From: Lachnospiraceae bacterium
GTDB lineage: Bacteria > Bacillota > Clostridia > Lachnospirales > Lachnospiraceae
NCBI GenBank assembly: GCA_024698885.1
Contig: JAILQQ010000054.1
Span: 619 to 64,618, forward strand
Direction: 5' to 3'
DNA: 64,000 nt
Shown here: positions 6,422-41,126 of the stretch, piece after piece
Position numbering within the stretch: position 1 is the stretch's first letter
How the letters are laid out: the number at the start of each line of letters is the position of its first letter
Notes under the pieces: generated by a model
Told to the model about the DNA's origin: nothing
The model's database searches: none
Seen by the model: the letters and a program-made list of their open reading frames with translations, nothing else
Position numbers and translations under genes: made by a program

Positions 6422-6437
6422 CCGTCATTCTCTCCTC

Positions 6438-7400: not shown

Positions 7401-7518
7401 ATGCGTCCTCCTTCTGACCATTTCCTATTGTACAATGGTTACCAAAAAAAGAGAAGATTTATTCCGCTCAAATGAACATATCTCCTTCTTTTGCTTATTT
7501 CTCTGGCTATTATCCTTA

Positions 7519-7527
7519 TGTTATAAT
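7519..7527 (+). promoter_or_regulatory. Putative extended -10 (TGtTATAAT) for the chemotaxis receptor gene
   Basis: TGTTATAAT at 7519..7527 lies about 130 nt upstream of the MCP start. The -35 is weak (TTCTCT at 17 nt spacing). Confidence 0.35.
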
Positions 7528-7655
7528 AGAATAGACTTATATCATGATTGAGGCTTCAAAAGTCACATCGTTCGGGGGTGTACAATTTTCAGGAAAGACT
7601 GAGCAGATCAACGTTTCCTTATGGAAATCATAAAAACCGCGAAAAGGAGTTAGCT

Positions 7656-9713: not shown

Positions 9714-9715
9714 GT

Positions 9716-9755
9716 TTGCGCCGATCCGGTCGGATCCTCCGACCGGATCATTTCC
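9716..9755 (-). repeat. Intergenic hairpin repeat (H3-type module with GATCATTTCC tail)
   Basis: TTGCGCCGATCCGGTCGGATCCTCCGACCGGATCATTTCC. The stem GATCCGGTCGGA/TCCGACCGGATC belongs to the repeat family described in the findings. Confidence 0.7.
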
Positions 9756-9771
9756 GCATTCCACACATAAT

Positions 9772-9811
9772 AAAAGCGCCCGGATCTCATTTCAAAGATC
9801 CGGGCGCTTTT
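9772..9811. terminator. Bidirectional rho-independent terminator between convergent genes
   Basis: AAAAGCGCCCGGATC (10-nt loop) GATCCGGGCGCTTTT gives a perfect 11-bp GC-rich stem. It is flanked by an A-tract and a T-tract, so it can serve both strands. Confidence 0.85.
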
Positions 9812-9832
9812 CATATCATTATTTTTTTGTCG

Positions 9833-10087
9833 TTAGGAATCTATCTCCCCGCGGGCCTGCTGTACCTGCGTCCAGTTGACTATCATCCGGTTCTGTCCCG
9901 CCAGATGCGCCAGCGCATCAGCCTTGGTCTCATAAGCATCTATCTTATGGCCGTCGTGATCATCAAGCACCTCCCAGTGTTTTACCGGATCCGCCCCGGC
10001 TATTTCCGAGGAATCAAATAACATCCCGCCGGCTACCTTTCCCATTTCCTCTTCGCTTAATGCATTCTTCATTAAATTCTCATTCAT
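9833..10087 (-). CDS. Small secreted-peptide precursor candidate with double-glycine leader
   Basis: The 84-aa ORF starts at MNENLMKNALSEEEMGKVAGG. GGAGGG lies 7 nt upstream. The gene has its own promoter and terminator. The leader matches the LSxxELxxIxGG pattern, with hydrophobic residues at -4, -7 and -12 and Glu at -8. Confidence 0.6.
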   Translation of the reverse strand: MNENLMKNALSEEEMGKVAGGMLFDSSEIAGADPVKHWEVLDDHDGHKIDAYETKADALAHLAGQNRMIVNWTQVQQARGEIDS

Positions 10088-10174
10088 GGCCTTACCCTCC
10101 TCTTCTATATTTCCGGGAGTCTCTCCCGGAATTTCTCCCGGGGAAAACATCTCTTGTTTTGCTCTTTCTGTTTA

Positions 10175-10203
10175 TTTATACGCAATATTTATGGCATTGG
10201 CAA
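10175..10203 (-). promoter_or_regulatory. Sigma-A-type promoter for the GG-leader peptide gene
   Basis: On the minus strand, TTGCCA (10203..10198), a 17-nt spacer, then TATAAA (10180..10175). Confidence 0.5.
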
Positions 10204-10229
10204 CATTTTTTATAAATAACATTTGCTAT

Positions 10230-21227: not shown

Positions 21228-23288
21228 CTATTCCCCAAGGAGCTGGTCGACCAGATCCTCCACATAGGCTTTTGCGCTTTCATAGGTAGCCGGATCTGCC
21301 GGGTCCACGCACGCGATCTTTAACAGGTCCGCCGGCGCCGCCGAACAGCCTGCCTTCAGGAAATTCAGATAAGCTTCTTTTTCGCTCTCATCCTCCGATA
21401 CCTTTTCGCAGATCGCCGTGGCAAAGGTCAGGGAAGTCGCATACTGATAAACATAGTAGCCCTTGTAGAAATGCGGGATCCTCGCCCAGTCAATCCCCTG
21501 CTCCGGCAGGATATCTACCGCGTCTCCAAAGTAGGTCTCAAGAAGCTGCACATATTTTTCATTCATGGCAGCCGGCGAAAGAGCCTCTCCGGCTTCCAGC
21601 GTCTTATAACAGTAATCCTCAAATTCCGCCAGCATGCACTGGAAAAGAAGAGTGTTTGCATAGAGCTCGATCTCCTTGTCAAGCCAGTATTCCCTTTCCT
21701 CCTGATCGGCCGCGTTTTCCACCAGCTGCTTGTACAGTACCAGTTCATTGGTCGTGGAGGCAACCTCCTGCGTAAAGATGCCCGGACAGCAGTTGTAAAT
21801 ATTCTGATTCTCCCTGGAGAACTCACTGTAAATCGCATGCCCCATCTCATGCACGATCGTGTTGACATAGCCCAGGGTTCCGTCATAGTTGTACATCACA
21901 TAGGGCAGCGTTTTATTCCCGAGAAGCCATTCATAAGCGCCTCCCTCCTTCGTATCGGAAGGATAAGCATCGATATGGCCGCTTGTCATGATCCGGTCAA
22001 AGGTATCCAGGTATTCATCGCCCCAGCTCTTTATAGCCTCTCTGCCCAGGTTCACGCAGTCCTCATAGGATGCAAGCGGTACTGAATAATCATTGAGCGG
22101 AAGCGTCAGGTCATAGGTACCTATCTCCTCAAGCCCGAGCCGCTCCTTTCTCAGGGCATAATACGCATGGAACTTCGGCAGGATCGAATGCGCGAAATCG
22201 ATGATCTGGTAGAAGATCTCCGGATCTACGTCGTTCATGTCCGTAAAATAAGCAAGCGTGCTGTCGTAGCCGTGGATCTGCGCCTCGGCCCAGTTGCGCT
22301 TCATTTCTCCCGCTAAAAGCTCGGCATAGGTATTCTCATAGGGCTTACGGATTGCTGCCCGTAAAAGATTTGCTTCCTTTCGGAAATCGTGATCATACTC
22401 GTTACTGTCCATGATCTGCGAATAGGCCTCATCGGTAAGGGTCCCCACAGTCCCGTCAGGATAGGTGATCTCCGGCCTTTTGTTCTCGACATTATCAAAG
22501 ACAAAATAAGCGTTGTAGGACTGATCCGCCGCTGTGCCCAAAAGTGCTTCCGCCTGTGTGGTCTCTTCGGAAAGCGTAACCCAGTCCGGATCGGTATATC
22601 TTCTGTAGTAATACGCGTAGGGCGCAAGGCGCTCATCGGAAAAGATCTTTTCCCTCTCTTCAAGGGGCAGCGCCATGATCTCCGGCGTGACAAAGGCAGA
22701 CGACATTGTGTATTTCATGCTGCCGTCCTGCACACGCGCCGCGACATGCTTCGCCCACGGATCTGATGCGTCAAGGGAGGACAGGAATGCGCTGTACATG
22801 GTGCCCCTGTAATAGATGTCATCTAACTTCAGAATATTTTCATCCTCCGTAATCGCTAAGATCGCATCCGCATTATTCAGGGTTCCGCGATAGGCTTCCA
22901 AATCCGAAGCATGCTCCGCCAGATAATCCATGTCCGCGTCAAACGCAGCCTCATCCGCAAAAAGCTCGGTCAGGTCCCATTCGGTCGGCAGGTCGGAAAG
23001 AGCATCCTCAGACTGTACCGTCTCCGTCTCCGCGGGCTGCTCGTCTTTCGTCTCTGCTGCCGGTTCCGCTTCAGGCTCTGCCTCTTTGGATCCTTCCTCC
23101 GCAACCGCGCCGCCGCCAAGCAGTGCCAGAATGATATCCACGATCTCATTAACCATTTCCTCCGACAGGATCCCTTCTCCTTCGGCTTCCGCCGCCTTTA
23201 CCGGAACGGTGAAAAGACCCGAGAAGCTGCCGGATAGAAAGACCGCGCCGGCTAACAATACTGCTGTGATTCGTTTTGACATTTTCAT
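21228..23288 (-). CDS. Secreted M3-family oligoendopeptidase (PepF-like)
   Basis: Signal peptide MKMSKRITAVLLAGAVFLSGS. HEMGH zinc motif. The length and layout are like oligoendopeptidase F. Confidence 0.85.
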   Translation of the reverse strand: MKMSKRITAVLLAGAVFLSGSFSGLFTVPVKAAEAEGEGILSEEMVNEIVDIILALLGGGAVAEEGSKEAEPEAEPAAETKDEQPAETETVQSEDALSDLPTEWDLTELFADEAAFDADMDYLAEHASDLEAYRGTLNNADAILAITEDENILKLDDIYYRGTMYSAFLSSLDASDPWAKHVAARVQDGSMKYTMSSAFVTPEIMALPLEEREKIFSDERLAPYAYYYRRYTDPDWVTLSEETTQAEALLGTAADQSYNAYFVFDNVENKRPEITYPDGTVGTLTDEAYSQIMDSNEYDHDFRKEANLLRAAIRKPYENTYAELLAGEMKRNWAEAQIHGYDSTLAYFTDMNDVDPEIFYQIIDFAHSILPKFHAYYALRKERLGLEEIGTYDLTLPLNDYSVPLASYEDCVNLGREAIKSWGDEYLDTFDRIMTSGHIDAYPSDTKEGGAYEWLLGNKTLPYVMYNYDGTLGYVNTIVHEMGHAIYSEFSRENQNIYNCCPGIFTQEVASTTNELVLYKQLVENAADQEEREYWLDKEIELYANTLLFQCMLAEFEDYCYKTLEAGEALSPAAMNEKYVQLLETYFGDAVDILPEQGIDWARIPHFYKGYYVYQYATSLTFATAICEKVSEDESEKEAYLNFLKAGCSAAPADLLKIACVDPADPATYESAKAYVEDLVDQLLGE

Positions 23289-23336: not shown

Positions 23337-26300
23337 TTATTGTGTAATGGCGGAGCGTAATACCGCCCGCCAGTCGGCAGGGGCTCCCACAGCCTGCAGC
23401 AGCCTGTTCAGCCTTACGCTCTTAAACGCCGCTTCTCTTTCGGCGCTGCCCGTGTCTGCCGCCACGTTGAGATAGGGCCGCATCAGATTGATCACCTGCA
23501 GGGTTTCCCCGTCTGTCCTTTGTTCATCATGCACCATACAGTGTGTATCGATGGCCGAAAAGATCCGGACAAGGTCCATGAGATACATCTGGTTTTTGAT
23601 CCCGGTCTCGCGGTTTAACGCGACGTCAAAGTTGGTGGCGTTCCAGGGGTAGGAATAGCTTTTATCACCTAACATCTCGGCGAAGTTCGTCATAAAATCC
23701 GAAAAGTTCCCGATCTTCCCTACCACAAGCCCGATCACCGAAATGGCCTTGTCCACCACCTTGAAGGGCCAGGAGAGCGGTCCGAACAGACTGGCGATAT
23801 TCACGCCGAAGTCGGCCACATTGGCCGCCAGGTCGGTCCGTGCGGCGTTCCGGTCCTGCCAGTTGCGCCATTCTCCCCGCTCCTGAAATACCGCCCCGAA
23901 GCTGTTATGCTCGGCGGCGACTGCCATGGCCTGTCTGTCATTCTGGGCGTAATCACGCGGCAGGTAGGGTAAAGCCTCGCGACGTCTTGCCAGCTCATCC
24001 ATGGCTGTTTTCATATCAAGGCTGGCCCCCTGCAGGCTGTTTTTTTCCTGATGCAGAAACCGGAGACTTGAAACAGCGTTCTTCGCCCGCATGATATCTC
24101 CGACGGCGCCGAGTAAATAGCCGGTTTCCTTAGGCGACTTTTTCGCCGCGAAGGTATAGATCCCCTTTGCGATCGTGCAGGCACTGAGAGTGGCCTCCAG
24201 TGAAAGCCTGTCGATCTCTATCTCCGTTTTTTTCTGAAACGCCGCGTCCGGGTTCTGTTCCTGCTGATAGTTCTTATCCAGTATCCGAGGTATGCTGTGA
24301 ATAAACTGGGAAATAGCATACAGGGTAGACAAAGCGTTGAAACTGTAGTCAGCAGGAGACAGGGTCTCGCCGGAAGGTGCGCTTTCTCTCTTCCCGGAAG
24401 AAGACGATGCCCCGAAGTGACGAAGCGTTTCTTCCCGCGCAAAGGAGGGGAGCCCTTCGGAACCGGCCTCGCCGGATCTCTGTCCGAAAAGGCCGCTGTA
24501 GCTGTTTACGAAATCCTCCCGTGCCCTGTTAAGATCCACCGGTTCCCCGTCGATCATCGCCGCAAACTGCATCGCCTCCAGCTGGCCGCCCGCCGCCTGC
24601 ACCGCCGCTGCCTGTGCCGGTGCCCCTGCCGCTGCTGTCTGCGGAGCGCCGGTGTAGGAGCGGGACGCCCGAAAGACATTGGCACTGCTAAAGCCGAACA
24701 GGGTATAAAAAAGCTGTTGGACAGTCAGTCTGGATAAAACGCCGGCGCGCCGCGACATGATCTCTTCTCCCCGGTGCTGTATCGCCTCCGGCATAAACGA
24801 TTTTCTGAGATAGGCCGCGTCAAAGGAACGGTCCCTTGCAAATTCCTCCATCAAGGCAATGCGCATGACCTGCCCTGCCCTCGGAATCGCGTCAAGCCGT
24901 CTGCCGAGCGCCCCTCTGCCGTACCTTTCTGTCGTTTTTTCGGCAAGCTCTCTTGCGATGCCCCAAAGCGCCGTATCCTCTGTCGACAACAGCATCACGC
25001 CCAGATGCTTCACATGATCACGGGTATCCCTTTGCACTGCGGCAAAGGCTTTTTCCCTGATCTGTTCAAGGGTCTCGTCATCATGGCCTGCATGAAGCGC
25101 CTGCGCCCCTATGGAATCCGGCGCCAGGTACGCCCGTATCAGAAACAACGCCGCGCCGGCAGGGGAATAAGGCCCTGCCAGGGCAAGGGCGTGCTCGCTG
25201 CCTGCCCGGTTCAGATCATCGTCCGGATCATAAGTCATATAATACTGTATCGTTCCCGCGTTGATATGGCGGAAGAAATCCGAACGGCGTATGGCTAACC
25301 GCATCTTCTCCCTGTTTACCATCGAGGAGAGCGCGGACGGACGACTGGCCGCGCTTTCATCCGTCACGGCGGCAGACTCATCGGAATAAAACCGCCCGCC
25401 GTAAACAAAACCTCTGACCGTCCTTTCCGGTCCTTCCTCCCTGATCTTAGCCTCATACAGCTCAGCGCTTCCTTCCGAGGTCAGATATTCTCCGTTTACG
25501 CCCCGCTCATCTGCCGTCAGGTTCATTTCGCCTGCTGCCATGCCGACAGGCGCCTCCCCGGTGGAAGCTTCATACGCGGCCCGCGTGAACTTCCCCCGCT
25601 CCTGTGCCGTCTCGCCGGAAGCGGTAAGCGCCGTATAGGTCCGGTCCGTAAACTGGTTCCTTGCCCGGTAGCCGCGGAAATTACCCATAAGCTTCATGCG
25701 CACCCGCTGCCTGCCGCTCCTCTGCTCCTCTCCCAGGGTATGGATCCCCTCGGCAAAGGCGTTCATGACGATCGTCTGGTGATATTTGATGAAATTAGCC
25801 CTGTCCTCGCTGTTTAAGGAATTCTCGCTCAGGCTCTTTGCCGATACATGGGTAAGCTTCGGGCGTGCCGCCGGATCCTCCGTGGCAAGCATCTGGATCG
25901 CCCTGATCTGTCTGTAGTCGTATCCGCCCACATATTCCGCGATCTTTTTCGCCTCATTCCCGGTAAGCATCCGTCCCCAGTCCTTCGATCTCGTAAAGCT
26001 GTAATAAGCCCGGGCGTGATCGTCATATGCCTTATAATGCTTTTTAAAGGTACCTTCCCGATACCGCAGCCGTTCCCTGTCCCAGTTGCGCGCCAGTCCC
26101 CACAGTTCCCGTAACCAGGCATTTGCCATGTACTCCGCCGTATCCTTCTTTTCCCGCGCTGCCTGTACCTGCCTGTCGGCCCGGTATCTCTGAAAGCGGC
26201 CGAGTCTCCTTGCCGGATCGAACTGTCCGTTTTCCCTGCGCAGGGTCTCGAGGTAGGCATTATCCTCTGCTCTTTGCGTCCTCGTATCAAAGGATTCTTC

Positions 26301-26957
26301 CTCCACCGCAAGGGTAACGGACTCGCTCTGAGCCGGTGCCGCAGACGGTTCCGCCGGCGCAGGCGCAGGTACAGAAGCGGGTACTGCCTCCCCTGCGGGG
26401 CCGCCTTCCCCTGCGGGGGCCGCTTCCTGCGGTAACGGCGCCTGCATGCCCGGAAGCGTCACGCTCACGGTTTTTGGCTGCGAGCCGTAGGAATAGTTTC
26501 TCATCGTCGCCTCATAGAAATAGCGGCCGGCCCGCTGTAAAAGCCGGTCAAGCTCGGCATGCGCCTCCGGCGCGTCCTCTCCGGATGCCCGGACTCTCGC
26601 CATGAGCCAGTCGATCCGCGCACGGATCGCATCCCCTGCTAACTTCCGCATATTCTCGATATGCGGGAGCATGATATTATCCGTATATTTCTGATGATTG
26701 GCCTTCACAAGCATGGCATCTGCCAGGGAAGCCGCATTTTCCTGCCGCATCCTGGCAAGGATATTGTCCCGGATCCCGTCGATCACGCTCTGGCTTCTGC
26801 CTTCCCCGGCAAAGGCCTCCTCTCCCTGATCCATAAAGGAGCGCAGATCCTCCGTCATGCCTGCGGTATCAAGCTCCCCGGTATCCGGCACCAAAGCCCT
26901 GTCAAAGCCCATAGGCTCCGTTGTTTTTACTTCCGTTTCGAGATCGGTATCAGGCAT
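23337..26957 (-). CDS. 1206-aa hypothetical protein, no recognisable domain, with C-terminal hydrophobic/amphipathic helices
   Basis: The ORF is uninterrupted. Its start overlaps the upstream stop (ATGCCTGA). There is no signal peptide. It has two Ala/Pro linkers. The C-terminus carries the hydrophobic segment ANVADFGVNIASLFGPLSWPFKVVDKAISVIGLVVGKIG. Confidence 0.8.
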   Translation of the reverse strand: MPDTDLETEVKTTEPMGFDRALVPDTGELDTAGMTEDLRSFMDQGEEAFAGEGRSQSVIDGIRDNILARMRQENAASLADAMLVKANHQKYTDNIMLPHIENMRKLAGDAIRARIDWLMARVRASGEDAPEAHAELDRLLQRAGRYFYEATMRNYSYGSQPKTVSVTLPGMQAPLPQEAAPAGEGGPAGEAVPASVPAPAPAEPSAAPAQSESVTLAVEEESFDTRTQRAEDNAYLETLRRENGQFDPARRLGRFQRYRADRQVQAAREKKDTAEYMANAWLRELWGLARNWDRERLRYREGTFKKHYKAYDDHARAYYSFTRSKDWGRMLTGNEAKKIAEYVGGYDYRQIRAIQMLATEDPAARPKLTHVSAKSLSENSLNSEDRANFIKYHQTIVMNAFAEGIHTLGEEQRSGRQRVRMKLMGNFRGYRARNQFTDRTYTALTASGETAQERGKFTRAAYEASTGEAPVGMAAGEMNLTADERGVNGEYLTSEGSAELYEAKIREEGPERTVRGFVYGGRFYSDESAAVTDESAASRPSALSSMVNREKMRLAIRRSDFFRHINAGTIQYYMTYDPDDDLNRAGSEHALALAGPYSPAGAALFLIRAYLAPDSIGAQALHAGHDDETLEQIREKAFAAVQRDTRDHVKHLGVMLLSTEDTALWGIARELAEKTTERYGRGALGRRLDAIPRAGQVMRIALMEEFARDRSFDAAYLRKSFMPEAIQHRGEEIMSRRAGVLSRLTVQQLFYTLFGFSSANVFRASRSYTGAPQTAAAGAPAQAAAVQAAGGQLEAMQFAAMIDGEPVDLNRAREDFVNSYSGLFGQRSGEAGSEGLPSFAREETLRHFGASSSSGKRESAPSGETLSPADYSFNALSTLYAISQFIHSIPRILDKNYQQEQNPDAAFQKKTEIEIDRLSLEATLSACTIAKGIYTFAAKKSPKETGYLLGAVGDIMRAKNAVSSLRFLHQEKNSLQGASLDMKTAMDELARRREALPYLPRDYAQNDRQAMAVAAEHNSFGAVFQERGEWRNWQDRNAARTDLAANVADFGVNIASLFGPLSWPFKVVDKAISVIGLVVGKIGNFSDFMTNFAEMLGDKSYSYPWNATNFDVALNRETGIKNQMYLMDLVRIFSAIDTHCMVHDEQRTDGETLQVINLMRPYLNVAADTGSAEREAAFKSVRLNRLLQAVGAPADWRAVLRSAITQ

Positions 26958-27642
26958 TTTTCTTACCCCTCGGTGCTTTCTTCTTCGGCTGTGCTTCCTT
27001 CTTCGGCTTCGCTTCTTTCCCCGCGCCTTCTTCCGGATCCGGCTGCGTTTTTTTCTCCGGCTTCTCTCCCGCGTTTAATTGACCAAGGTAGTCAAATCGC
27101 TCCTGCAGATCGTTCAGATCCGCGATCGAGTCCAGATAGTCCATGTAAGCCTCGATCGTTATCCTGTCGGGATCATCGCAAAGGAAAAGGATAAAGTCCG
27201 CGAAAAGATCCAGCTGTTCGCCAAGCGTTCCGAGATAAAACTGCGCGTCCTCAAGGGCCGCGTCCAAAGCCATCGGATTCACCGGCATCCGGTAGCTTAA
27301 ATAAACCTGTCTTAGCGGCGCGTAATACCCAAAGCACCCAAAAGAAGGAAAGGCACCGGTGGAGATCACGGTGTTTAAGCTGTTTAAGCCTGTCAGGATC
27401 CCCGGGAGCTTTTCCTCTTCGATCCGCTGCGCCAGTGTGGCATGAAAATGCAGGATCGGGTAGGGCATGTCCGGATAGAAGCCGTCCTCCATGGCAGCTT
27501 CAAAAATGACATCGGTCCCCGATACCCCAAGGTTCCTCGCCATAGACCTGAGAACCCCTTTATGATCCCTGCAGTTGCCGAAAAGCCTTTCAATATTCTT
27601 CTTCAGCTCGTCCTCAAATTCCGCTGTTGATCCTATTGCCAT
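26950..27642 (-). CDS. Hypothetical protein, possibly YbjN / type III secretion chaperone-like fold, with a basic Lys/Pro tail
   Basis: The MAIGSTAEFEDELKK start at 27642 follows AGGAAAA. The ORF-track start at 27687 reads through a hairpin repeat. The fold assignment rests on strand/helix pattern only (ILHFHATLA, LTGLNSLNTV, GCFGYYAPLRQVYLSY). The tail is KPKKEAQPKKKAPRGKKNA. Confidence 0.6.
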   Translation of the reverse strand: MAIGSTAEFEDELKKNIERLFGNCRDHKGVLRSMARNLGVSGTDVIFEAAMEDGFYPDMPYPILHFHATLAQRIEEEKLPGILTGLNSLNTVISTGAFPSFGCFGYYAPLRQVYLSYRMPVNPMALDAALEDAQFYLGTLGEQLDLFADFILFLCDDPDRITIEAYMDYLDSIADLNDLQERFDYLGQLNAGEKPEKKTQPDPEEGAGKEAKPKKEAQPKKKAPRGKKNA

Positions 27643-27689: not shown

Positions 27690-29849
27690 CTATATACTTT
27701 GAAACGCCAGCTTTTCAAACTCCTGCGCGCACAGCGGCCGCGAGAAATAATAGCCCTGCACCACCGCGCAGCCCATCTGTTTCAGCATCTGAAGCTGTTT
27801 CTCTGTTTCCACGCCCTCTGCGATCACGGGAACCTGCAGGTTCTCCGCGATGCCCAGGATCAGCTTCACCAGCTGAACATCTTTTTCTTCGTGCTCAATA
27901 TTCTGAATGAACGCCCTGTCCATCTTCAGAACATCGATGGGCATAGAGGAAAGCATATTCAGCGAGGAGTAACCGGATCCGAAGTCATCCATCTCGATCT
28001 CATAGCCGTCCTTTCTCAGTCCGTCGACGACGGTGATCACCTGGTCCGCATTTTCGGTATAGGCGGATTCCGTAACCTCAAGCTTTAAGGTCTCATGCTC
28101 CAGCCGGTTGCGTGCTAAGATCTCTTCCAGCGTATCCGCAAGCTTCGGATCAAATACGTCCACCCGGGAAAGATTGACGGAAACCGGCAGCGTGATACCG
28201 TACTGATCCCGCCAGACGGCTGTCTGTCTGGCCGCTTCCGACCATACGAACTGATCAAGAAGGCTGATCTGTCCGTTCTTTTCAAAAAGAGGGATAAAGT
28301 CACCCGGGGAGATCATGCCAAGCTCCGCGTGATGCCAGCGGACAAGCGCCTCCGCGCTGACAAGCCTCGGCGTATCGGAGCGGATATCATATTTCGGCTG
28401 GTAGAACACCTCGAATTCATTTGTGTCAAGCGCGTGGCGGAGATCGTTTACCAGACGCTGCTCATAGCTCTCCCGCTCACTGACCTTTTCATCATATATG
28501 ATCAGATGCTCCTTGTAATGGCCCCGCGCCATGTTGCAGGCCGTCCGGGCTCTGTCAAACAGCTGCACCGGCTCGAGCTTCTCCCGCCAGGGCATAACGC
28601 CCATGCGCAGCCTGATATTGGCATTGGGCGCAAGCTCATAAAGCTTTGTCTGCAGACGGTCAAAGACAGATTTATATTCCTCCGCGTGAAGACAGTATAT
28701 GTCAAACCGGTCCGCCTCAAATCTTCCCGCGATCCCCTTCCTCTCGGCCGCGATCTGGCGGATCTCTTCTCCCAGTACCTTAAGGACCTGATCCCCGAAC
28801 TCCCGCCCGTTCAGCGCGTTGATCGAATGGAACTGTTCAATGTTCAAAACGATCGCGTCCATCGGCGTCTCCGGATGCTCTCTGAATATCCGGTCGGCAT
28901 ACTGGAAGAAGAATTTCCGGTTATATAATCCGGTCAGATCATCATTCTCCGTCGCTAAGATCAGGTTTTTCGCCTTTCTGACAGCCTGCATGTTCTGTAA
29001 AAGCAGCATCAGGATCACGAAGATCACCACGCCGATCATCGTCGTCAGCAAAACCAGATGATCGATCACGAAATCCATCGGGGTAAGCTTTGCGTCCTCC
29101 GTGATATAGCGGGACAGCATCGCGTTAACATGGGAATCCGGGATCATGCCGATCACCTTGGCCAGAATGGAATAGAGCTCGGTCTGGCCTTTTTTCACCC
29201 CAAAACAGTAATCCATCTCCTGCCCGATGGAAACCGGGGTCAGACGCAGTCTTTCGCATTCCCTGGCGATACTGTTGAAGCGGTAATTGCTGATCAGCAG
29301 GCAGTCCGCGCTGCCCTTCGATACGGCCTTCAGGCATTCCCAGGAATTATTGTAATAAGCGCTCTCCCAGGTGGGAAAATGCTCGTTCAGAAAGGCCTCA
29401 TAATTCGGATTGCCCCTGTTCACGGCTGCGGTCACCTGATCCCCCTTGGCAAACAGGTTGGGATCCGAAAAGCGCACGGCCGCGTACATCTCCGTATCAA
29501 GCAGCGGCGGCGTCATGACCATCCCCTGCATTTCCGCGTCATAGCCGCTGAAATTCGTAGGAAACACGCAGTCGACCTCTCCGGCCTGCAGGGCGTTCAT
29601 CGCGTCCTCTGCCGTGGGATACGCCGTCGTTTCAAAGGAAAGCTTCGCATTCGACATACAATCGGCGGCAGCGATCAGGTAATCCTTTAAAAAGCCCGTC
29701 AGCTCGCCGGTCTCCTCATCTGCGGCGCATAATGCCAGATAGTTATCCTGATACCCGACCCGGATCGTCTGATGGGCGGAAAGCCATTCCAGCTCGCTCG
29801 GCGTCATAAACGCGTTGGCACCGACCCTTCGGATGTATTTTTCATACAT
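27690..29849 (-). CDS. Solute-binding (SBP_bac_3-like) domain, TM, degenerate GGDEF, EAL c-di-GMP phosphodiesterase. Possibly the 3' part of a gene split by an in-frame TAG
   Basis: The GGDEF position reads RFEADRF, which is degenerate. EAL motifs EALVRW, DDFGSGYSSL and QGYYFSRP are intact. One TM (LVLLTTMIGVVIFVILMLLL) is present. There is no signal peptide and no SD of its own. Confidence 0.85.
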   Translation of the reverse strand: MYEKYIRRVGANAFMTPSELEWLSAHQTIRVGYQDNYLALCAADEETGELTGFLKDYLIAAADCMSNAKLSFETTAYPTAEDAMNALQAGEVDCVFPTNFSGYDAEMQGMVMTPPLLDTEMYAAVRFSDPNLFAKGDQVTAAVNRGNPNYEAFLNEHFPTWESAYYNNSWECLKAVSKGSADCLLISNYRFNSIARECERLRLTPVSIGQEMDYCFGVKKGQTELYSILAKVIGMIPDSHVNAMLSRYITEDAKLTPMDFVIDHLVLLTTMIGVVIFVILMLLLQNMQAVRKAKNLILATENDDLTGLYNRKFFFQYADRIFREHPETPMDAIVLNIEQFHSINALNGREFGDQVLKVLGEEIRQIAAERKGIAGRFEADRFDIYCLHAEEYKSVFDRLQTKLYELAPNANIRLRMGVMPWREKLEPVQLFDRARTACNMARGHYKEHLIIYDEKVSERESYEQRLVNDLRHALDTNEFEVFYQPKYDIRSDTPRLVSAEALVRWHHAELGMISPGDFIPLFEKNGQISLLDQFVWSEAARQTAVWRDQYGITLPVSVNLSRVDVFDPKLADTLEEILARNRLEHETLKLEVTESAYTENADQVITVVDGLRKDGYEIEMDDFGSGYSSLNMLSSMPIDVLKMDRAFIQNIEHEEKDVQLVKLILGIAENLQVPVIAEGVETEKQLQMLKQMGCAVVQGYYFSRPLCAQEFEKLAFQSI

Positions 29850-29852
29850 CTG

Positions 29853-30611
29853 CTAGTTATAATAGCGGTTCTCCTCCTGGATCCTGGCTAAAGCCGCGTT
29901 CAGCTCGACCATCAGATCGGGGCGGGAGTTGCTGACGGCAAAATAATACTCCGACGAACCGATCTTAAATACCGGTATCGCCTGGGTCGCATCGGTAAAG
30001 GAGTCCACCGTGATATAAGCATCTAACGCACCGTCTTCGAGCATCTGAAGGGATTCGCTCTCGGGAGTGGTCAGCTCGATGATCTCAGCATGAACGTCAT
30101 TATCTTTTTCCCAGTTAACGTAGAAATCCGCCTGAATACTGTCTTTGTTCACCCCCACCCGTTTCCCGTTCAGGGTCGCAGGGTCCTTACGGGATATCGT
30201 ATCGTTTCCCGGCGCCGTAAAGATATAGTAATCCTCGATCCCCATGGGCAGAGACGGGAACATCATTTTTTTCTCCCGCTCCGGCGTATAGGAAACGTCG
30301 CTCATCAGATCGATCTCCCCGTTTTCAAGCATATGCAGAAGATCCGACCAGCTTCCGGCTACATATTCATAGGTCCAGCCGCTATAGGCAGACAGCTTCA
30401 GCTGATACTCATAGGCATAACCGGAACGGCGACCGTATTCATCTATCGTATTATAGGTGGAGTCGTACCAGCCGACACGCACGACCTTGCTGCCCTGCGC
30501 CTCCTTCCCCGGGTCCTGTGCCCGGACGCAGAGCGGCATCGCCGTATTCAAAAAAAGGGAAAGCAAAAGAGCGGCTAATACTACCCACTTCACATCATGA
30601 TGTATGCGCAA
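29853..30611 (-). CDS. Signal-peptide-bearing SBP_bac_3-like solute-binding domain protein. Possibly the 5' part of the split sensor gene
   Basis: TTG start 5 nt after GAGGTGAGG. Signal peptide VKWVVLAALLLSLFLNTAMPLCVRA. It ends at a TAG that is in frame with the next ORF. Confidence 0.8.
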   Translation of the reverse strand: MRIHHDVKWVVLAALLLSLFLNTAMPLCVRAQDPGKEAQGSKVVRVGWYDSTYNTIDEYGRRSGYAYEYQLKLSAYSGWTYEYVAGSWSDLLHMLENGEIDLMSDVSYTPEREKKMMFPSLPMGIEDYYIFTAPGNDTISRKDPATLNGKRVGVNKDSIQADFYVNWEKDNDVHAEIIELTTPESESLQMLEDGALDAYITVDSFTDATQAIPVFKIGSSEYYFAVSNSRPDLMVELNAALARIQEENRYYN

Positions 30612-30729
30612 TATGCCTCACCTCAAATGAATTATTCTGAAGTTCATTTTTATATATTTTATCACAGATCAGCACATTATCATACAGGCTGATTTTATAT
30701 TTTGAATTCACATGTGTTCTGCGGTCTGA

Positions 30730-30945
30730 GGCATCAAAAGTGTCATGTGGCAAAGCCACATGTGCAATTTGCATGGTAAACCGTCTCTGCAAGCTCGCTT
30801 ACAAGAGCGGTTTATTATGCAAAGTGTCATGTGGCAAAGCCACATGTGTAATTTGCATGGTAAACCGTCTCTGCAAGCTCGCTTGCAAGAGCGGTTTATT
30901 ATGCAAATTCATCATGGCACTTTGTGCCATGTGACTTTTGATGCC
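30730..30945. repeat. Structured tandem element: two 84-bp units plus a third palindrome, closed by a 12-bp inverted repeat
   Basis: GGCATCAAAAGT (30730..30741) pairs with ACTTTTGATGCC (30934..30945). The units run 30740..30823 and 30824..30907. The palindrome CATGTGGC-AAA-GCCACATG occurs at 30744 and 30828, and the related CATGGCAC-TTTG-TGCCATG at 30913. Confidence 0.85.
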
Positions 30946-31492: not shown

Positions 31493-33817
31493 TTACTCCT
31501 GCCCCTTCAGTGCGTCCACCATGTCCACGGTTTTGACCTTCCGGGACAAAAGCCGGTTGACCCCCATGGAAAGAAGCAGGGTCCCGGTGATGGTATAAAT
31601 ATAGGAAAGGAGCTGGTAGCTTGCCACATAGTCCATGGATTCGGGCATCGTGGAAAAGAGAACATTGATCAGCCACATGCCGCAGGGGATCCCGAGCGCT
31701 ATCCCGACCAATGTCAGCCATATATTCTGGCTCTGTAAGATCCTTCTTATTTTGGCCGTGGTAAAGCCAAGCACCTTTAAGGTCGCCATCTCCCTGTTCT
31801 TTTCCACAAGTGACAAAACCCCCAGATTATACAGTACAACGACGCCCAGCACCGCAGCGGCGGCGATCATGATGTAGACCATGACATACATCATTTCCTT
31901 CATGGCGTCCAGGGCCTTCATCATCTCGGGCAGGCTCTGTGTTCCGGTGATATTGGTATCATCCTGCAGCTTCTCCTGCGGCGTATGGTTCGTATAGATC
32001 GTCGTCGGAACAAAATCAAACCGTAAGCTCTCAAAAACCTTTCTCGTCATCGTAATGCCCTGGCTCACGGGATTTCGGTATATGCCGCCTATTCTCAGGA
32101 TCTTCCAGTCATTGTCCCCCACCAGGTGCCATCTGACAAGGTCCCCCTCCGAAACCCCCAGGGTCTGCGCCATCTTATAGGACATGGAAATACTCTCCTC
32201 ATCAGGCTTTAGGGGCTTCAGATCCTTATCCTGGAAATGAAGGAAATTTCCGGTATCATAAACCGTCACTGTTCCCGTCTTCTTTTTACCGTAAGCTTCA
32301 AATTCCGCCGGGGACTGCTCCACCATCTGTCCCCGGTAGCGCTTGGCATATTCCTCGGTCGTCGAATAGGGGCAGCCCTCCTTCATGATGATCTGAAACT
32401 GCGAGGTGTTCAGCTCTCCGTACATCCAGGTCGTAATGAAGGAGACCGTATCCAGGCACGCAAAGGCGCCGAACATGAGCATGGCGCAGCCCAGGACGCC
32501 GATCACGCCCATTAAGGACCGCACCTTGTTGCGCAGGATATCCCGCAGGTTCCATTGCACCGCAAAATCAAGCCTTTCCCAAAGCCTGCTTTTCTCGATC
32601 AGGGAATGCTTCAGGTTTTTCGGCGCGGCAGGCCGCAGGGTTTCCGCCGGCGCAGGCGCAAGCTCCTTCCGGCAGGACATAAAGCTTACGAGGGAAGAGG
32701 TAAGGACGGAAAAGGCGATCGCCAGATATGACTTTGCGGAAAACGCCGTACCCATGCCGGGCACAAGATAGGTAGTATCCATCATGCTCAGGATATATTC
32801 GGCAATGGTGAAATGTCCCGCCACGGCGCCCGTAATACCGCCAAAGAGGCTTAAGAAAAATCCATAGGAAGCGTAATGCCTGGTGATGGTCTTTTTGGTG
32901 AATCCTAACGCCTTCAGCGTCCCGATCTGCACTCTCTGCCTTGAGGTCATCCTGGTCATCGTGGTGATGATCCCGAGGATCGCGATCAGCAGAAAGACCG
33001 CCGGGAAAATAAAGGTCATGGAGGAATGCTGTTCGATTTCCGCGCGGAAGGTCTGGTAGGAAAGGTCGGAATCCTTGTCCGTCACGATCACGCTGTCAGA
33101 CCCCAGCGCGTATTTCACTTCAAGCGCCGCTTTCGAACACTGGTTTTTCTCCTCGTCGGAAAGGCCGTCGGTATTGTCCACATCCTTGACGTCAAGGACC
33201 ATCTGATTGTAATAGACATGACGTTTATCGGGGAAGGCCTTGATATCCATGAACGCGGCGCCGTAGGCCCCGTAATCGGGCATCATGGCGGCGGCGTCCG
33301 GCAGGAAGTATACATATTCGGGATGATAGACCGCGCCCTTGATCTCCTGCTCGAAGATGATCCCGTTTACCTTCATCGAAAGCTTGTCGCCTGTTTTCAG
33401 GCCCTGTCTCTTCATGAAGCTGAAGTCAAGCCAGACCCCGCTTTCTCCTTTTACATACGGTTCCCCCTCTGTCAGATACAGCTTCGATATCTCGTTTCCA
33501 TCCAAAAAGAGCGTGGAAAGGTCAAGCTCCTCCCCCCGAAGCCTTGCTTTTCCGTTTAGCTTCAGACGAAGCTCGGCCTTCTCGATATTCGGGATAAACT
33601 CGGCTTTTCCGATATCCGACTCCCGAAAGGCGATCCCCTGCGCCCACAGATCCGCCAGTGCGGTCTCTTCGTAAAAACGTCCCTCATTTACCCGCATCCC
33701 GCTGCATTCGCTGTCAAGCCCCGTAAAAACAAAGATGCCGAGAAGCGACATCAGAAAGATAGACAGAAACTGCACCTTACTTACAAGCAGGTCCCTCCGC
33801 ATTTTCCGAAAGAGCAT
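31493..33817 (-). CDS. ABC transporter permease, FtsX/MacB-like with two FtsX domains
   Basis: 774 aa. Two four-TM FtsX-type blocks are separated by large extracytoplasmic domains. It is coupled to the upstream ATPase gene. Confidence 0.85.
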   Translation of the reverse strand: MLFRKMRRDLLVSKVQFLSIFLMSLLGIFVFTGLDSECSGMRVNEGRFYEETALADLWAQGIAFRESDIGKAEFIPNIEKAELRLKLNGKARLRGEELDLSTLFLDGNEISKLYLTEGEPYVKGESGVWLDFSFMKRQGLKTGDKLSMKVNGIIFEQEIKGAVYHPEYVYFLPDAAAMMPDYGAYGAAFMDIKAFPDKRHVYYNQMVLDVKDVDNTDGLSDEEKNQCSKAALEVKYALGSDSVIVTDKDSDLSYQTFRAEIEQHSSMTFIFPAVFLLIAILGIITTMTRMTSRQRVQIGTLKALGFTKKTITRHYASYGFFLSLFGGITGAVAGHFTIAEYILSMMDTTYLVPGMGTAFSAKSYLAIAFSVLTSSLVSFMSCRKELAPAPAETLRPAAPKNLKHSLIEKSRLWERLDFAVQWNLRDILRNKVRSLMGVIGVLGCAMLMFGAFACLDTVSFITTWMYGELNTSQFQIIMKEGCPYSTTEEYAKRYRGQMVEQSPAEFEAYGKKKTGTVTVYDTGNFLHFQDKDLKPLKPDEESISMSYKMAQTLGVSEGDLVRWHLVGDNDWKILRIGGIYRNPVSQGITMTRKVFESLRFDFVPTTIYTNHTPQEKLQDDTNITGTQSLPEMMKALDAMKEMMYVMVYIMIAAAAVLGVVVLYNLGVLSLVEKNREMATLKVLGFTTAKIRRILQSQNIWLTLVGIALGIPCGMWLINVLFSTMPESMDYVASYQLLSYIYTITGTLLLSMGVNRLLSRKVKTVDMVDALKGQE

Positions 33818-34602
33818 TACCAGCTTACCTCCGAAGCATCTTTGGGAGAATCATTGATCTCTACGGATTCGATGGTCCCGTTTTTCACCCGTATGACCCT
33901 GTCGGCGATATCCGCAAAAAAGCTGTTATGCGTGACCATTACCACCGTATGCTTCTTTTCCCGGCTCATATCCTGCAAAAGCTTTAAAACCTCCCGTCCC
34001 GTCTTGGTATCGAGCGCGCCGGTCGGCTCGTCGCAGAGCAAAAGTCTGGGATTTTTGGCAAGCGCCCTGGCGATGGAGGTTCTCTGCTGTTCCCCGCCGG
34101 ACATCTGGGAGGGGAACTGGTTGATATGCTCGCTTAACCCCACAGAAATAAGAGCCTCCTTCGGGTCGAGCAGAGACATATCCTTATTCTCTGCTTCCCA
34201 CACGGAGCCTCTTTTCACGTTTTTTCTCACATCCTTCATCAGCGCCACATTTTCGTAGGCGGTAAGCGTCGGGATCAGATTGTAGAACTGAAATACCACG
34301 CCGACGTTCCAGGCCCGGTACGCGGTGAGTTCGTCGTCCTTAAAACGGGAAATGTCATGGCCGTTAAACAGGATGCTGCCCGAGGTCGGGGAGTCCATGC
34401 CGCCAAGGAGATTTAAAAGCGTGCTCTTGCCGGCTCCGCTGGGCCCTAGGATCACGATCATTTCCCCCTCGTAGATCTCGAGATTAACGTCCTTCAGGGC
34501 GAAAAAATCGTTTTCTCCCATCCTGTATTTTCTGTCCACATGGCAGAACTCAATGAACGGCTTCAAAGGCTTTCTCCCCAATCTGCTCATCGGTAACGGC
34601 AT
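33817..34602 (-). CDS. ABC transporter ATP-binding protein (MacB/LolD-type)
   Basis: Walker A GPSGAGKST, signature MSGGEQQR, Walker B LLLCDEPT. The start is uncertain. A TTG at 34566 (MKPFIEF) is as plausible as the ATG at 34602. Confidence 0.88.
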   Translation of the reverse strand: MPLPMSRLGRKPLKPFIEFCHVDRKYRMGENDFFALKDVNLEIYEGEMIVILGPSGAGKSTLLNLLGGMDSPTSGSILFNGHDISRFKDDELTAYRAWNVGVVFQFYNLIPTLTAYENVALMKDVRKNVKRGSVWEAENKDMSLLDPKEALISVGLSEHINQFPSQMSGGEQQRTSIARALAKNPRLLLCDEPTGALDTKTGREVLKLLQDMSREKKHTVVMVTHNSFFADIADRVIRVKNGTIESVEINDSPKDASEVSW

Positions 34603-35998
34603 CGGTGATGACCGACATGCCGGCGGTAAGTCCGTCTATCACCTCGACAGCATCGCCGCTTACGATGCCGGCGGTAAAGTACTTCTTTTCGATCCGCCCC
34701 TCATCATTGATGATATAGCAGTACTCGCCGTCATCATCGCTGTAAAAGGCCTGGTACGGCATCAGCAGGACGTCTGCCTTTTCGTCGGTATAGATCGTCA
34801 CGTCCGCCTCAAGCCCTAAGATCAGCCCTCTTCCCCCCTCTATCTTCACATCGACCGCGACCTTTGACTTGTCCGAGCTGTCCGTCACCGCGATCTGCCT
34901 GATCTTTGACACCTTTCCGATATATCTGGTCCCCGAGGCGTCTATCTCGGCTCTCTGTCCCACGGCAATGCTGCTGATATCGTATTTCGAGATCATGACG
35001 GTGACCTTCATGTCATCTCTGGATACGATCGTAAACAGGGGATCCCCCTTCGAAGCGACAGAGCCCGCCTTCACATGGCAGCTCGTGACAATACCGTTAA
35101 AATCAGAGGTTATCCCCTGTCTGGCCTTTTCGAGATCGATCCGCGCATAGCTCTCCTGCTCCTTCGCGATCTCCACCTGATCAAGGAGGGCCGCCTTTTC
35201 CCCGGAATTCAGCACGCCCTCCTCATATTTTGCCTTATTGGTTTTGGTTTCATTCCAGTTTCTCGATATATCCTCCATCATATTGGATACATCGTTGTTC
35301 AGCCGGTATTCCTCCGGCGTAAGCGCTAACTGCGGAAGGGCGGCAAGCTCAACCTGCGCGCGCGCGATATCCTCCTTCAGTCCCGAGATATCCTTTTCCA
35401 GCTGCTGCCTGTCCTCGTCGGAAAGCCCGCCGTCAAGGAGCTTCGTACTCTTCTCGGCGATCTGCTGATTCTTCGAGGCAATGCAGGTATTCAGCTCCGT
35501 GGCCCGTTTTTCCGTGTTCCAGTTTTCCTGATACTGATCCTCTGAGATATAGTCCGACGCTTCCCGCTGCCACCAGTAAAGGACCGCATAGGTATTGTCA
35601 TCGTCCACAGCCTTGTTATACTTTGCCTGGTAGGAATCGCTCTTGCCGATCTTTCCTTTGCTGGTATCCTCGCTCTGGACCCTTGTTAAAGCCGCGTGCT
35701 CGGCATTTCTTTCAAAATCCTCAACATCATATTCGAGGAGCTTCTCGCCGAAGCGTACCTCATCTCCCTCTTCTATGGCAATGCTGGCAACGGGAGCCGT
35801 CACCCCCGCAAAATATGTATATTCCTCGTCACTGCCTATGCTGCCGGTCTCCTCGATGGAGCCCGCGATACTCCCCAGATAGATCTTCCCGGTCTCATGC
35901 TCCTTCCCTCTGCCCGGGAAAAAAGCCATCAGCGCGAAAGTGGATGCGCCAAGCGCGATGATCGGGAGCGTGACCCTGACGACCGTTCTTAAGCTCAT
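34550..35998 (-). CDS. HlyD/efflux periplasmic adaptor family protein
   Basis: The MSLRTVVRVTLPIIALGAS start at 35998 follows AGGAGG. It has an N-terminal TM, coiled-coil and beta-barrel regions. The ORF-track start at 36115 reads through a hairpin repeat. Confidence 0.8.
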   Translation of the reverse strand: MSLRTVVRVTLPIIALGASTFALMAFFPGRGKEHETGKIYLGSIAGSIEETGSIGSDEEYTYFAGVTAPVASIAIEEGDEVRFGEKLLEYDVEDFERNAEHAALTRVQSEDTSKGKIGKSDSYQAKYNKAVDDDNTYAVLYWWQREASDYISEDQYQENWNTEKRATELNTCIASKNQQIAEKSTKLLDGGLSDEDRQQLEKDISGLKEDIARAQVELAALPQLALTPEEYRLNNDVSNMMEDISRNWNETKTNKAKYEEGVLNSGEKAALLDQVEIAKEQESYARIDLEKARQGITSDFNGIVTSCHVKAGSVASKGDPLFTIVSRDDMKVTVMISKYDISSIAVGQRAEIDASGTRYIGKVSKIRQIAVTDSSDKSKVAVDVKIEGGRGLILGLEADVTIYTDEKADVLLMPYQAFYSDDDGEYCYIINDEGRIEKKYFTAGIVSGDAVEVIDGLTAGMSVITDAVTDEQIGEKAFEAVH

Positions 35999-36011
35999 AA
36001 GGCCTCCTATG

Positions 36012-36043
36012 TCTGCGCCGATTCGCTTGCGAATCGGATCATT
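36012..36043 (-). repeat. Intergenic hairpin repeat (H1-type), directly 5' of an SD
   Basis: TCTGCGCCGATTCGC-TT-GCGAATCGGATCATT. In sense orientation it is followed by CAGACATAGGAGGCCTTATG. Confidence 0.75.
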
Positions 36044-36130
36044 GTTATTCGTATTTCCTGACCGTTGACTATTATAATTAGCGTAGGCTAACTTGTCAAC
36101 CCTCTTAAACCGCATCCCGGCATTTTTCGC

Positions 36131-36756: not shown

Positions 36757-37482
36757 CTACTGCCCTTCCGCTCTCTCGCCGTACAGGCATGGTTCCCCTT
36801 TTTTCCCGGGGAAAAGGTATCCCGTCAGATTTCTGGCAACTTCGTCGTGCCGTCTCAGGATCACCTTTATATCCTCGCTGCAGAGCTTCATGGCCTGCAG
36901 GATCGAAAAGCGTATCATAAACATCAGATCCGTCCTGGCATCCGGCCCGTAGGCGCTCAGAAATTCGACGCGCAGACTCCCCGACGGCAGTCTGTGTATC
37001 AGAAGAAATCCGTTGATCCGGTTATCTGTCTCCAGATAGCAGGAGATATCCGGATCGAACCAGGAAAAAGGCAGCGATCCGAGATCCTCGACCACTTCCC
37101 GTTTTGTATGGAAGATGCAGTTCATCAGTCCCCGCCTGAAAAGAGGCTCATTGAGCGTCCCCAGAGCCCTCATGGCTGACGGCACCCTTTTTTTACTGAC
37201 AACGCCGAGACCGGAAAGATCCCTGACCGTAACGGTAAGATCCTCCCCCTCTTTTTCCGTAACGGAAAAGCCCGCGTCACGAAGGATATCAGGCAGTTCC
37301 CCCGATACCTCCCCGGGGAGCTCCGTAAGATAATCATCCGTTAGCAGGATATTCAGAAGATCCTGATCACTGTCCTCATCCTCAAAATATAGCAAACGAC
37401 AAAACTCTTTTCGTTTTGGCGTTTGCTGCGCCGGATTTTGGCCGCTTCCTGCGGCATATTTCCTTACAAAATCCGTGCGCAT
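36757..37482 (-). CDS. Hypothetical protein (C-terminal half weakly GNAT-like)
   Basis: 241-aa ORF, last gene of a tightly packed four-gene string. The GNAT resemblance rests on pattern only (GFLLIHRLPSGSLRVEFLSAYG). The start is uncertain because the SD abuts the ATG. Confidence 0.5.
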   Translation of the reverse strand: MRTDFVRKYAAGSGQNPAQQTPKRKEFCRLLYFEDEDSDQDLLNILLTDDYLTELPGEVSGELPDILRDAGFSVTEKEGEDLTVTVRDLSGLGVVSKKRVPSAMRALGTLNEPLFRRGLMNCIFHTKREVVEDLGSLPFSWFDPDISCYLETDNRINGFLLIHRLPSGSLRVEFLSAYGPDARTDLMFMIRFSILQAMKLCSEDIKVILRRHDEVARNLTGYLFPGKKGEPCLYGERAEGQ

Positions 37483-41028: not shown

Positions 41029-41126
41029 GCTGCGAGAAACCACAACTTACAAAACCATTCCGGTGTGGTATAGTAATGGAAAAAGACTCCGAAATCGAAA
41101 TCGAAAACGAAAGGAAACGACGGAAA

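Follow-up and report, generated by a model that had tools for sequence, protein, structure and literature searches.

What does a small acidic protein of 230 amino acids (aa) do beside a protein of 1206 aa that matches nothing in the domain libraries? The question is raised by two adjacent genes in a 64,000-nucleotide window, the whole stretch of contig JAILQQ010000054.1 of a Lachnospiraceae bacterium that was analysed here: the small gene at 26950..27642 and the large gene at 23337..26957, both on the minus strand. A preliminary description, made from the letters of the window, had taken the pair for a chaperone and its secreted or membrane-acting client. Our most confident claim is that the small protein binds the large one as its dedicated partner, be it chaperone or adaptor, because of its fold class, the strict linkage of the two genes and a conservation stronger than that of the client. 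The pair as a whole is tentatively read as a dedicated chaperone-client module, joined in many related loci by an unfoldase and tied to signalling; we hold this reading as possible rather than probable, and the membrane destination is its least secure element.

No match to the small protein was found in Pfam, NCBIfam, PADLOC, PHROG or the PDB sequence families. Forty homologues, 41-67% identical, were aligned over aa 1-190, which form a conserved, acidic core (pI 4.29), followed by a basic tail at aa 191-230 (pI 9.85). The acidic body and basic Lys/Pro-rich tail described beforehand are therefore both present, but the tail is lineage-specific, and most homologues carry short acidic tails instead. 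The alignment of homologues was used as input for AlphaFold, and the resulting model reached a predicted local distance difference test score (pLDDT) of 84.5 and a predicted template modelling score (pTM) of 0.71. Its topology, a-b-b-b-b-a-b-b-a-a, consists of a helix, four strands, a helix, two strands and two helices, that is, one strand and one helix more than the secretion chaperone-like fold. The segments guessed from the sequence to be strands and helix have the same secondary structure in the model: strands are found at residues 63-71 (ILHFHATLA), 103-107 and 112-120 (CFGYY..QVYLSYRMP), and the helix at 76-97 includes LTGLNSLNTV.

When the model was compared with the PDB by using Foldseek, all 15 top matches were class I chaperones of type III secretion systems (T3SS), namely SicP, CesT, ExsC, SchA and VecA, then SrcA and SycT, with probabilities up to 1.0 and target-normalised TM scores of 0.5-0.62. 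T3SS chaperones also lead the top 50 matches listed, among which none is named YbjN, AmyR or DR1245. The small protein thus has, by a confident prediction, the alpha-beta3(4)-alpha-beta2-alpha fold of T3SS class I chaperones (the TY fold), a likeness that is at the level of fold and is not demonstrated family membership. The earlier suggestion of a YbjN- or type III chaperone-like protein agrees with the predicted fold, but not with the Pfam YbjN and CesT profiles, which are not matched.

The large protein (134 kDa, two Cys, grand average of hydropathicity -0.52) showed no domain match in Pfam, NCBIfam, PADLOC or other libraries when searched alone, nor in Pfam when 26 homologues were searched. 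A profile search of the family against PDB sequences returned only designed helical bundles and coiled coils, at profile positions 829-960. No profile match was found that would place it in a known cytoplasmic family (such a match had been set beforehand as refuting the proposed function), and the two Cys, the two Ala/Pro-rich linkers (aa 151-230 and 766-870) and the lack of a domain match were as first described. An exhaustive HMMER scan, in which a profile of aa 221-1206 was run against 1.84 billion representative proteins, retrieved no more than 91 relatives, of which 61 had E < 1e-30; a word-index homologue search, made both with the single sequence and with a 6-sequence profile, returned only two proteins, the candidates being drowned by words of low complexity. 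Identity to the window copies is 18-34% in the large family, versus 41-67% in the small one. The possibility of a phage tape-measure protein was rejected, because no phage genes flank the locus and the sole PHROG match has an E-value of 0.029.

The domain architecture of the large protein was drawn from an alignment of 26 sequences; all coordinates refer to the minus strand. The conservation profile defines an N-terminal domain at aa 1-150 (26508..26957), with the motifs LRSFMDxGE and VIxGIRxxxLxRMRxENAxS, which neither the most divergent variants nor the longest have lost (P0064, P0068, P0089 and P0112) and which is a candidate region for chaperone binding. Linker 1, aa 151-230 (26268..26507), is Ala/Pro-rich (A+P+G 41%) and highly variable in length, with a gap fraction of 0.35-0.56. 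The central domain, aa 231-765 (24663..26267), is basic (pI 9.25), has many invariant Arg, Lys, Tyr and Phe residues, and contains the motifs FRGYRARNQF, MNLxADERGxNGEY and AIRRSDFFRHINAGTIQYY. Searching it by eye for HExxH, kinase HRD/DFG, ADP-ribosyltransferase R-S-E, Fic and DxD motifs revealed none that is conserved. An RxxD within AIRRSDFF was considered as an inhibitory site (I-site) for cyclic di-GMP (c-di-GMP) and dropped, its Asp being unconserved in distant members.

Linker 2, aa 766-870 (24348..24662), is Ala/Gly/Ser-rich by composition and variable, with a gap fraction of 0.39-0.58. The C-terminal region comprises aa 871-1206 with the stop codon (23337..24347). From about aa 871 to 1100 it holds amphipathic helices rich in small residues; the most conserved block of the protein, FDxALxRETGIxNxxYLxDLxRIFxAIDTH, follows at aa 1111-1140, where conservation peaks at 3.36 bits. 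The tail, LxxLLxxVGxxxxWRxxLRxxI at aa ~1180-1206 (23340..23420), is recognisable in most of the distant relatives listed (12-30% overall identity), with substitutions such as F/Y for W, and stands 0-14 residues from the C-terminus in relatives. Such a tail would suit a recognition tag for an AAA+ ATPase or a targeting signal.

Three long variants, P0064, P0068 and P0089 (1896-2093 aa; coding regions at 6020..12301 in locus L049 and 4748..10603 in L051), retain all these domains and carry an insert of ~740-970 aa in linker 1, with a shared core of ~400 aa. The core contains an invariant His..Asp motif (HYVTVTG..YDSSGY) and a Cys motif (NCYAVTGAAML), which are similar to those of C39-type cysteine peptidases, except that the His motif precedes the Cys motif. 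The insert had no match in Pfam or the PDB, and Pfam searches with the whole long variants were also empty.

The strict linkage of the two genes was established on loci collected from four look-ups, a one-genome-per-species scan and a metagenome scan; the latter was seeded with a 5-sequence alignment from a distant clade; with only P0112, a distant protein, as the query, no relatives were retrieved from the metagenomes. After our own de-duplication, about 40 distinct related loci were obtained, and all tallies given below refer to them. Wherever a locus has room for both, the two genes lie directly side by side, also in a clade that shares only 25-30% identity with the other members. Separation of the two genes in relatives, named beforehand as evidence against a functional pair, was not observed. 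The order is mostly small then large, and large then small in one subclade and in the distant clade. All 35 genome loci belong to rumen Lachnospiraceae (Butyrivibrio, Pseudobutyrivibrio ruminis, whose record is a metagenome-assembled genome, and the isolates AD3010 and XBB2008), and several genomes contain two or three copies (two in XBB2008, three in RUG14895). The loci are flanked by housekeeping genes and have normal GC content. No family members were found in the viral contigs, phage records and plasmid records searched, and an origin from phages or mobile elements was rejected on this ground.

Within the window, the listing of open reading frames (ORFs) and direct reading of the sequence agree on the two genes and on their overlap of 8 nt, ATGCCTGA (26950..26957, minus strand), in which the stop codon of the small gene falls inside the start of the large one: the former ends with AAA AAT GCC TGA and the latter begins with ATG CCT GA... 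The small-gene start at ATG 27642 is preceded at 8 nt by AGGAAA, and the N-termini of 39 homologues line up with the MAIGSTAEFE that it encodes. Several homologues of the large protein begin as does the product read from ATG 26957 (MPD/MSD, then 10-15 aa, then M.F), and purine-rich sites lie upstream of both start codons. From the overlap, coupled translation and a fixed ratio of the two products had been deduced. The overlap is real, but in relatives it is the exception, the two genes being separated by gaps of ~1-45 nt; being unconserved, and short overlaps being common in bacterial operons, it is only weak evidence for a fixed stoichiometry.

A third gene, encoding an AAA+ ATPase of 660-730 aa, is adjacent to the pair in about 22 of the ~40 loci. 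The set of large, small and AAA+ genes persists in the distant clade of 25-30% identity as well, and this persistence is the strongest evidence that they form a functional unit. The ATPase matches Pfam PF00004 (E 3e-30); 12 aligned sequences show little or no variation in GPPGTGKT (Walker A), the KYIGE pore loop, FFDEAD (Walker B) and the RR of the arginine fingers. It has two rings, and its N-terminal P-loop-like module is degenerate, GxGGRRF replacing the P-loop. Its nearest solved relatives in the PDB are Cdc48, p97 and VAT, whereas its NCBIfam scores all fall far under the family cut-offs, the best being IteA_antiphage with 135 bits versus 510. Because the pore loop is intact, we propose that this p97-like ATPase, where present, acts on the chaperone-client complex by threading, a claim next in likelihood to that of the dedicated partner.

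These elements can be arranged in a mechanism. The small acidic TY-fold protein would bind the large protein during its synthesis, at a part that is extended or prone to aggregate and for which the N-terminal 150 aa are the best candidate; the client would thereby stay soluble and inactive. The AAA+ ATPase, with its intact KYIG pore loop, would then strip off the chaperone and unfold or remodel the large protein for deployment. As to where the latter goes, insertion into or passage through the cytoplasmic membrane appears somewhat likelier than a purely cytoplasmic role; this would be the least secure step. Expression or activity may be tied to signalling, through the solute-sensing EAL phosphodiesterase in the window and through sets of PP2C, STAS and kinase proteins elsewhere.

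The neighbours of the pair in the window, all on the minus strand, are as first described. Upstream, 47 nt from the small gene and co-oriented with it, lies a gene (27690..29849) whose product contains, according to Pfam, an SBP_bac_3 sensor, a transmembrane (TM) segment, a GGDEF domain and an EAL domain. In our reading of the translation its GGDEF motif is degenerate (GRFEADRF) and its EAL motif intact; for this reason the protein is probably a phosphodiesterase only. The gene is probably in the same operon as the small gene. The putative operon begins with a gene for an SBP_bac_3 solute-binding protein (29853..30611, Pfam). A single transcript across the operon is plausible from the sequence, since no intergenic terminator-like site was found on the minus strand from 30611 to 23288 and promoter-like sites, defined by consensus matches only, are present at 30706..30656, upstream of 30611. 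Downstream and co-oriented, 48 nt beyond the large gene, an M3 oligopeptidase with a signal-peptide-like N-terminus is encoded (21228..23288, Pfam); this gene is absent from the related loci. The GC content at the locus is unremarkable, and a search of the whole window against Rfam found no family and no riboswitch, c-di-GMP riboswitches included.

Further features of the window were recorded. Upstream of the solute-binding protein gene, the intergenic sequence at 30737..30907 consists of two tandem copies of an 84-bp unit (97% match), both of which hold the hairpin-forming sequence CATGTGGCAAAGCCACATG and have no Rfam match. About 4 kb upstream of the pair, on the same strand, an HlyD-family membrane-fusion protein, an ABC ATPase and an FtsX-type permease form a MacAB-like efflux set (31493..36115, minus strand). 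The window had been said to contain no secretion apparatus; this efflux set is there, but nothing ties it to the pair. ABC exporters of other types lie near the module in L042-L044 (C39-peptidase ABC transporters, in divergent orientation) and in L049, and their vicinity may be a coincidence. An ORF of 241 aa at 36757..37482 (minus strand) is 37% identical to a family of 281-aa proteins with no Pfam match, which also occurs near small/large modules in L005, L023 and L032. A BspA-type leucine-rich-repeat protein of 659 aa (41076..43055, plus strand; PF13306, E 2e-72) is apparently unrelated to the pair.

In the related loci, a weakly GNAT-like protein of 270-290 aa is found 12 times, a PP2C (SpoIIE-type) phosphatase 8 times and a GGDEF or EAL protein 6 times, the window included. 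The 282-aa neighbour family yielded only a weak match to RibT in a profile search against the PDB. A hybrid histidine kinase and response regulators lie near the module in L028. In L042 (7788..9799, minus strand) and L043 (2705..4672, minus strand) a membrane-anchored PP2C stands beside a kinase of 137-147 aa, RsbW/SpoIIAB-like by its motifs, and in L005 a STAS protein of 91 aa is encoded directly upstream of the small gene (7406..7681). The signal-controlled function suggested by the preliminary description is supported in that signalling genes recur by the module, but their kinds vary between GGDEF/EAL, PP2C, STAS and kinase/response regulator proteins.

Some loci are long co-oriented arrays with further giant proteins of low complexity (the L002_1171 family), every one of them paired with a distant small-like partner of 172-176 aa or with a GNAT-like partner; a second AAA+ protein, PP2C and ABC components also occur in them (L049, L047/L050 and L028 are examples). 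The paralogous module consists of a Gln/Gly/Ala-rich protein of 1040-1240 aa with Gly-rich hydrophobic C-terminal helices, preceded by the 172-176-aa protein or by a GNAT-like protein of ~268 aa. It is found at L002 29..4358, L049 13003..16674, L028 14775..16528 and L032 80..1993, and in L032 the 172-176-aa protein matches the small-protein profile with an E-value of 9.5e-5. The pair may thus be one part of a system that is larger, varies between loci and is connected with c-di-GMP signalling and partner-switching. On the widest reading, the trio would be the core of a hitherto unrecognised protein-deployment system of rumen bacteria of Gram-positive type that places giant helical effectors into or across the membrane, under the control of signalling and by means other than a known secretion apparatus; the paralogous giants, the GNAT-like proteins and the PP2C genes would be included, and some effectors would carry peptidase-like cargo. 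Taken jointly, all this is unlikely, and is offered as a speculation.

Several observations weigh against the chaperone-client-unfoldase reading and its membrane destination. The assignment of the small protein to the chaperones comes from the predicted fold alone, with no membership of a sequence family: Foldseek E-values are modest (~8e-3), and none of the 40 homologues gave a Pfam signal for CesT or YbjN, weak matches with E-values as high as 10 included. The same fold is found in proteins that do not serve secretion, such as YbjN/AmyR (PMC5398634), DR1245 (PMC3575483) and the TY-chaperones (TY-Chap) of conflict systems (PMC9503650). No homologue of the partner ATPase is present in the window, which contains the bare pair; the genome being a fragmented metagenome-assembled one, the ATPase gene may lie on another contig. 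No 19-aa window of the large protein encoded here reaches a Kyte-Doolittle value of 1.4, and no TM-grade segment is present. AlphaFold, run on aa 221-1206 with a 2-sequence alignment, gave a pLDDT of 33 and little beyond a mostly helical content. Finally, about 50 loci revealed no recurrent secretion apparatus or membrane partner, whole genomes not having been searched.

The C-terminal helices had been compared to the membrane-insertion hairpins of translocators or pore-forming toxins. They are amphipathic, as described, but only mildly hydrophobic in the window protein, whose hydropathy gives no backing to such hairpins; its best Eisenberg mean, 0.66, is located in the central domain. Several relatives reach Kyte-Doolittle values of 1.6-2.24 in the matching helical region, with interspersed Asp, Lys and Asn. 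The only PDB matches of this region are soluble helical bundles of designed origin. The destination is the weak point of the reading: what speaks for a large protein that would be secreted or would act at the membrane is the chaperone class, the dedicated unfoldase, an effector-like modular architecture in which the peptidase-like insert is optional, and the hydrophobicity of the helices in relatives.

The main competing explanation, which we judge somewhat unlikely, confines the complex to the cytoplasm, where it would act in regulation or as a scaffold, nothing being exported. The large basic protein, rich in Arg and aromatic residues, would be a scaffold, a polymer or an effector binding nucleotides or nucleic acids; the small one would act as a regulator or assembly chaperone, like ExsC, CesT-CsrA or DR1245-DdrB; the AAA+ ATPase would disassemble the complex, and signalling by c-di-GMP together with partner-switching (PP2C, STAS, kinase) would determine the output. 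Such a complex would fit the pI of the central domain, the want of TM-grade segments in the window protein and of secretion genes that recur, and the TY-fold proteins documented outside secretion, for which a peptide-binding or partner-stabilising role has been proposed (PMC5398634, PMC3575483, PMC9503650). The recurrent signalling neighbours would fit it as well, from the GGDEF/EAL proteins of 6 loci and PP2C of 8 to STAS in L005, the RsbW-like kinases in L042 and L043 and the histidine kinase in L028; yet they vary from locus to locus and genes of this sort are very numerous in these genomes, so that the association may be partly due to chance. Moreover, no motif for binding nucleotides or nucleic acids was recognised with Pfam or PDB profiles, and the hydrophobic helices of relatives and the peptidase-like insert suit an effector better than a scaffold.

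A toxin-immunity or anti-phage system is improbable. It would take the large protein as toxic effector, the small one as immunity protein or antitoxin and the ATPase as sensor or activator, and it could account for the fast divergence of the large protein, the several paralogous copies per genome, the variable accessory genes and the IteA_antiphage match. The latter, at 135 bits versus a cut-off of 510, reflects general AAA similarity only, and neither window protein matches PADLOC. Polymorphic toxins have a conserved N-terminal trafficking region, a hypervariable C-terminal tip and a co-varying immunity gene, while in the large protein the last 100 aa are the most conserved; the small partner evolves slowly, contrary to typical immunity proteins, and the loci lie among housekeeping genes, have normal GC content and were not found on mobile elements.

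That the flagellar type III apparatus exports the large protein, for which the small one would act as export chaperone, had also been considered in the preliminary description, and is very improbable. Butyrivibrio and Pseudobutyrivibrio are flagellated, and the fold resembles that of the injectisome class I chaperones, but the flagellar export chaperones FliS, FliT and FlgN are all-helical and not CesT-like, FliI would make a dedicated AAA+ unfoldase superfluous, and neither the window nor any related locus has a flagellar gene beside the pair; the idea has no support. Chance adjacency or spurious ORFs are refuted, beyond any serious doubt, by the conservation data, both ORFs having homologues with conserved domains that are adjacent in ~40 loci across deep divergence.

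The dedicated chaperone-client module, as we prefer to read the pair, can be compared with systems already described. The likeness to T3SS class I chaperones (SicP, CesT, ExsC, SchA, VecA, SrcA) consists of the predicted a-b-b-b-a-b-b-a fold, of a small acidic protein encoded beside one large dedicated partner, and of an ATPase associated with the pair in many loci. The small protein is outside the sequence families of those chaperones, which measure ~130 aa, whereas its core measures 190 aa and has an extra C-terminal helix. The hosts are Lachnospiraceae, of Gram-positive type, with no injectisome genes nearby; type III secretion genes were not recognised in the scanned segments of the window or among recurrent neighbours, whole genomes not having been searched. 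The client has 1100-2100 aa and a conserved C-terminus, and the partner ATPase is a classical p97-like AAA+ protein, whereas the T3SS ATPase SctN is F1-like.

YbjN/AmyR, DR1245 and TY-Chap1-3 share the fold class outside type III secretion; they differ in that no report pairs them with a giant orphan protein plus a p97-like ATPase, and the small protein gives no Pfam signal for YbjN. The partner ATPase resembles Cdc48, p97 and VAT in Walker A and B, the KYIG pore loop, the arginine fingers and the best PDB matches; it differs in a first ring that is apparently degenerate and in an N-terminal region with no match at all. By analogy only, the three parts also recall the logic of the ESX (type VII) systems, where a cytoplasmic chaperone (EspG), an elongated helical client (PE/PPE) and a cytosolic AAA+ ATPase (EccA) work together. 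No sequence relationship accompanies this analogy: the ATPase scores 37-40 bits versus an EccA cut-off of 467, and LXG, WXG100 and EssC/EccC gave no signal in the 26 large homologues (Pfam) or in the neighbours scanned.

A literature search found no description of a module made of a small TY-fold protein, a giant orphan and a p97-like AAA+ ATPase, and what is new here is the joining of a TY-fold chaperone-client pair to an orphan giant family and such an ATPase. The narrow taxonomic range limits the present weight of the finding. It defines a family of proteins of 1100-2100 aa with no annotated domain, confined to the rumen Lachnospiraceae, which are central to fibre breakdown in ruminants, and the cultured carriers XBB2008 and AD3010 make binding, location and ATPase-dependence directly testable. 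If the reading is true, the fold of T3SS chaperones would serve a giant client and a p97-like unfoldase in bacteria of Gram-positive type, outside any injectisome, and the type III chaperone class would have a wider range of uses.

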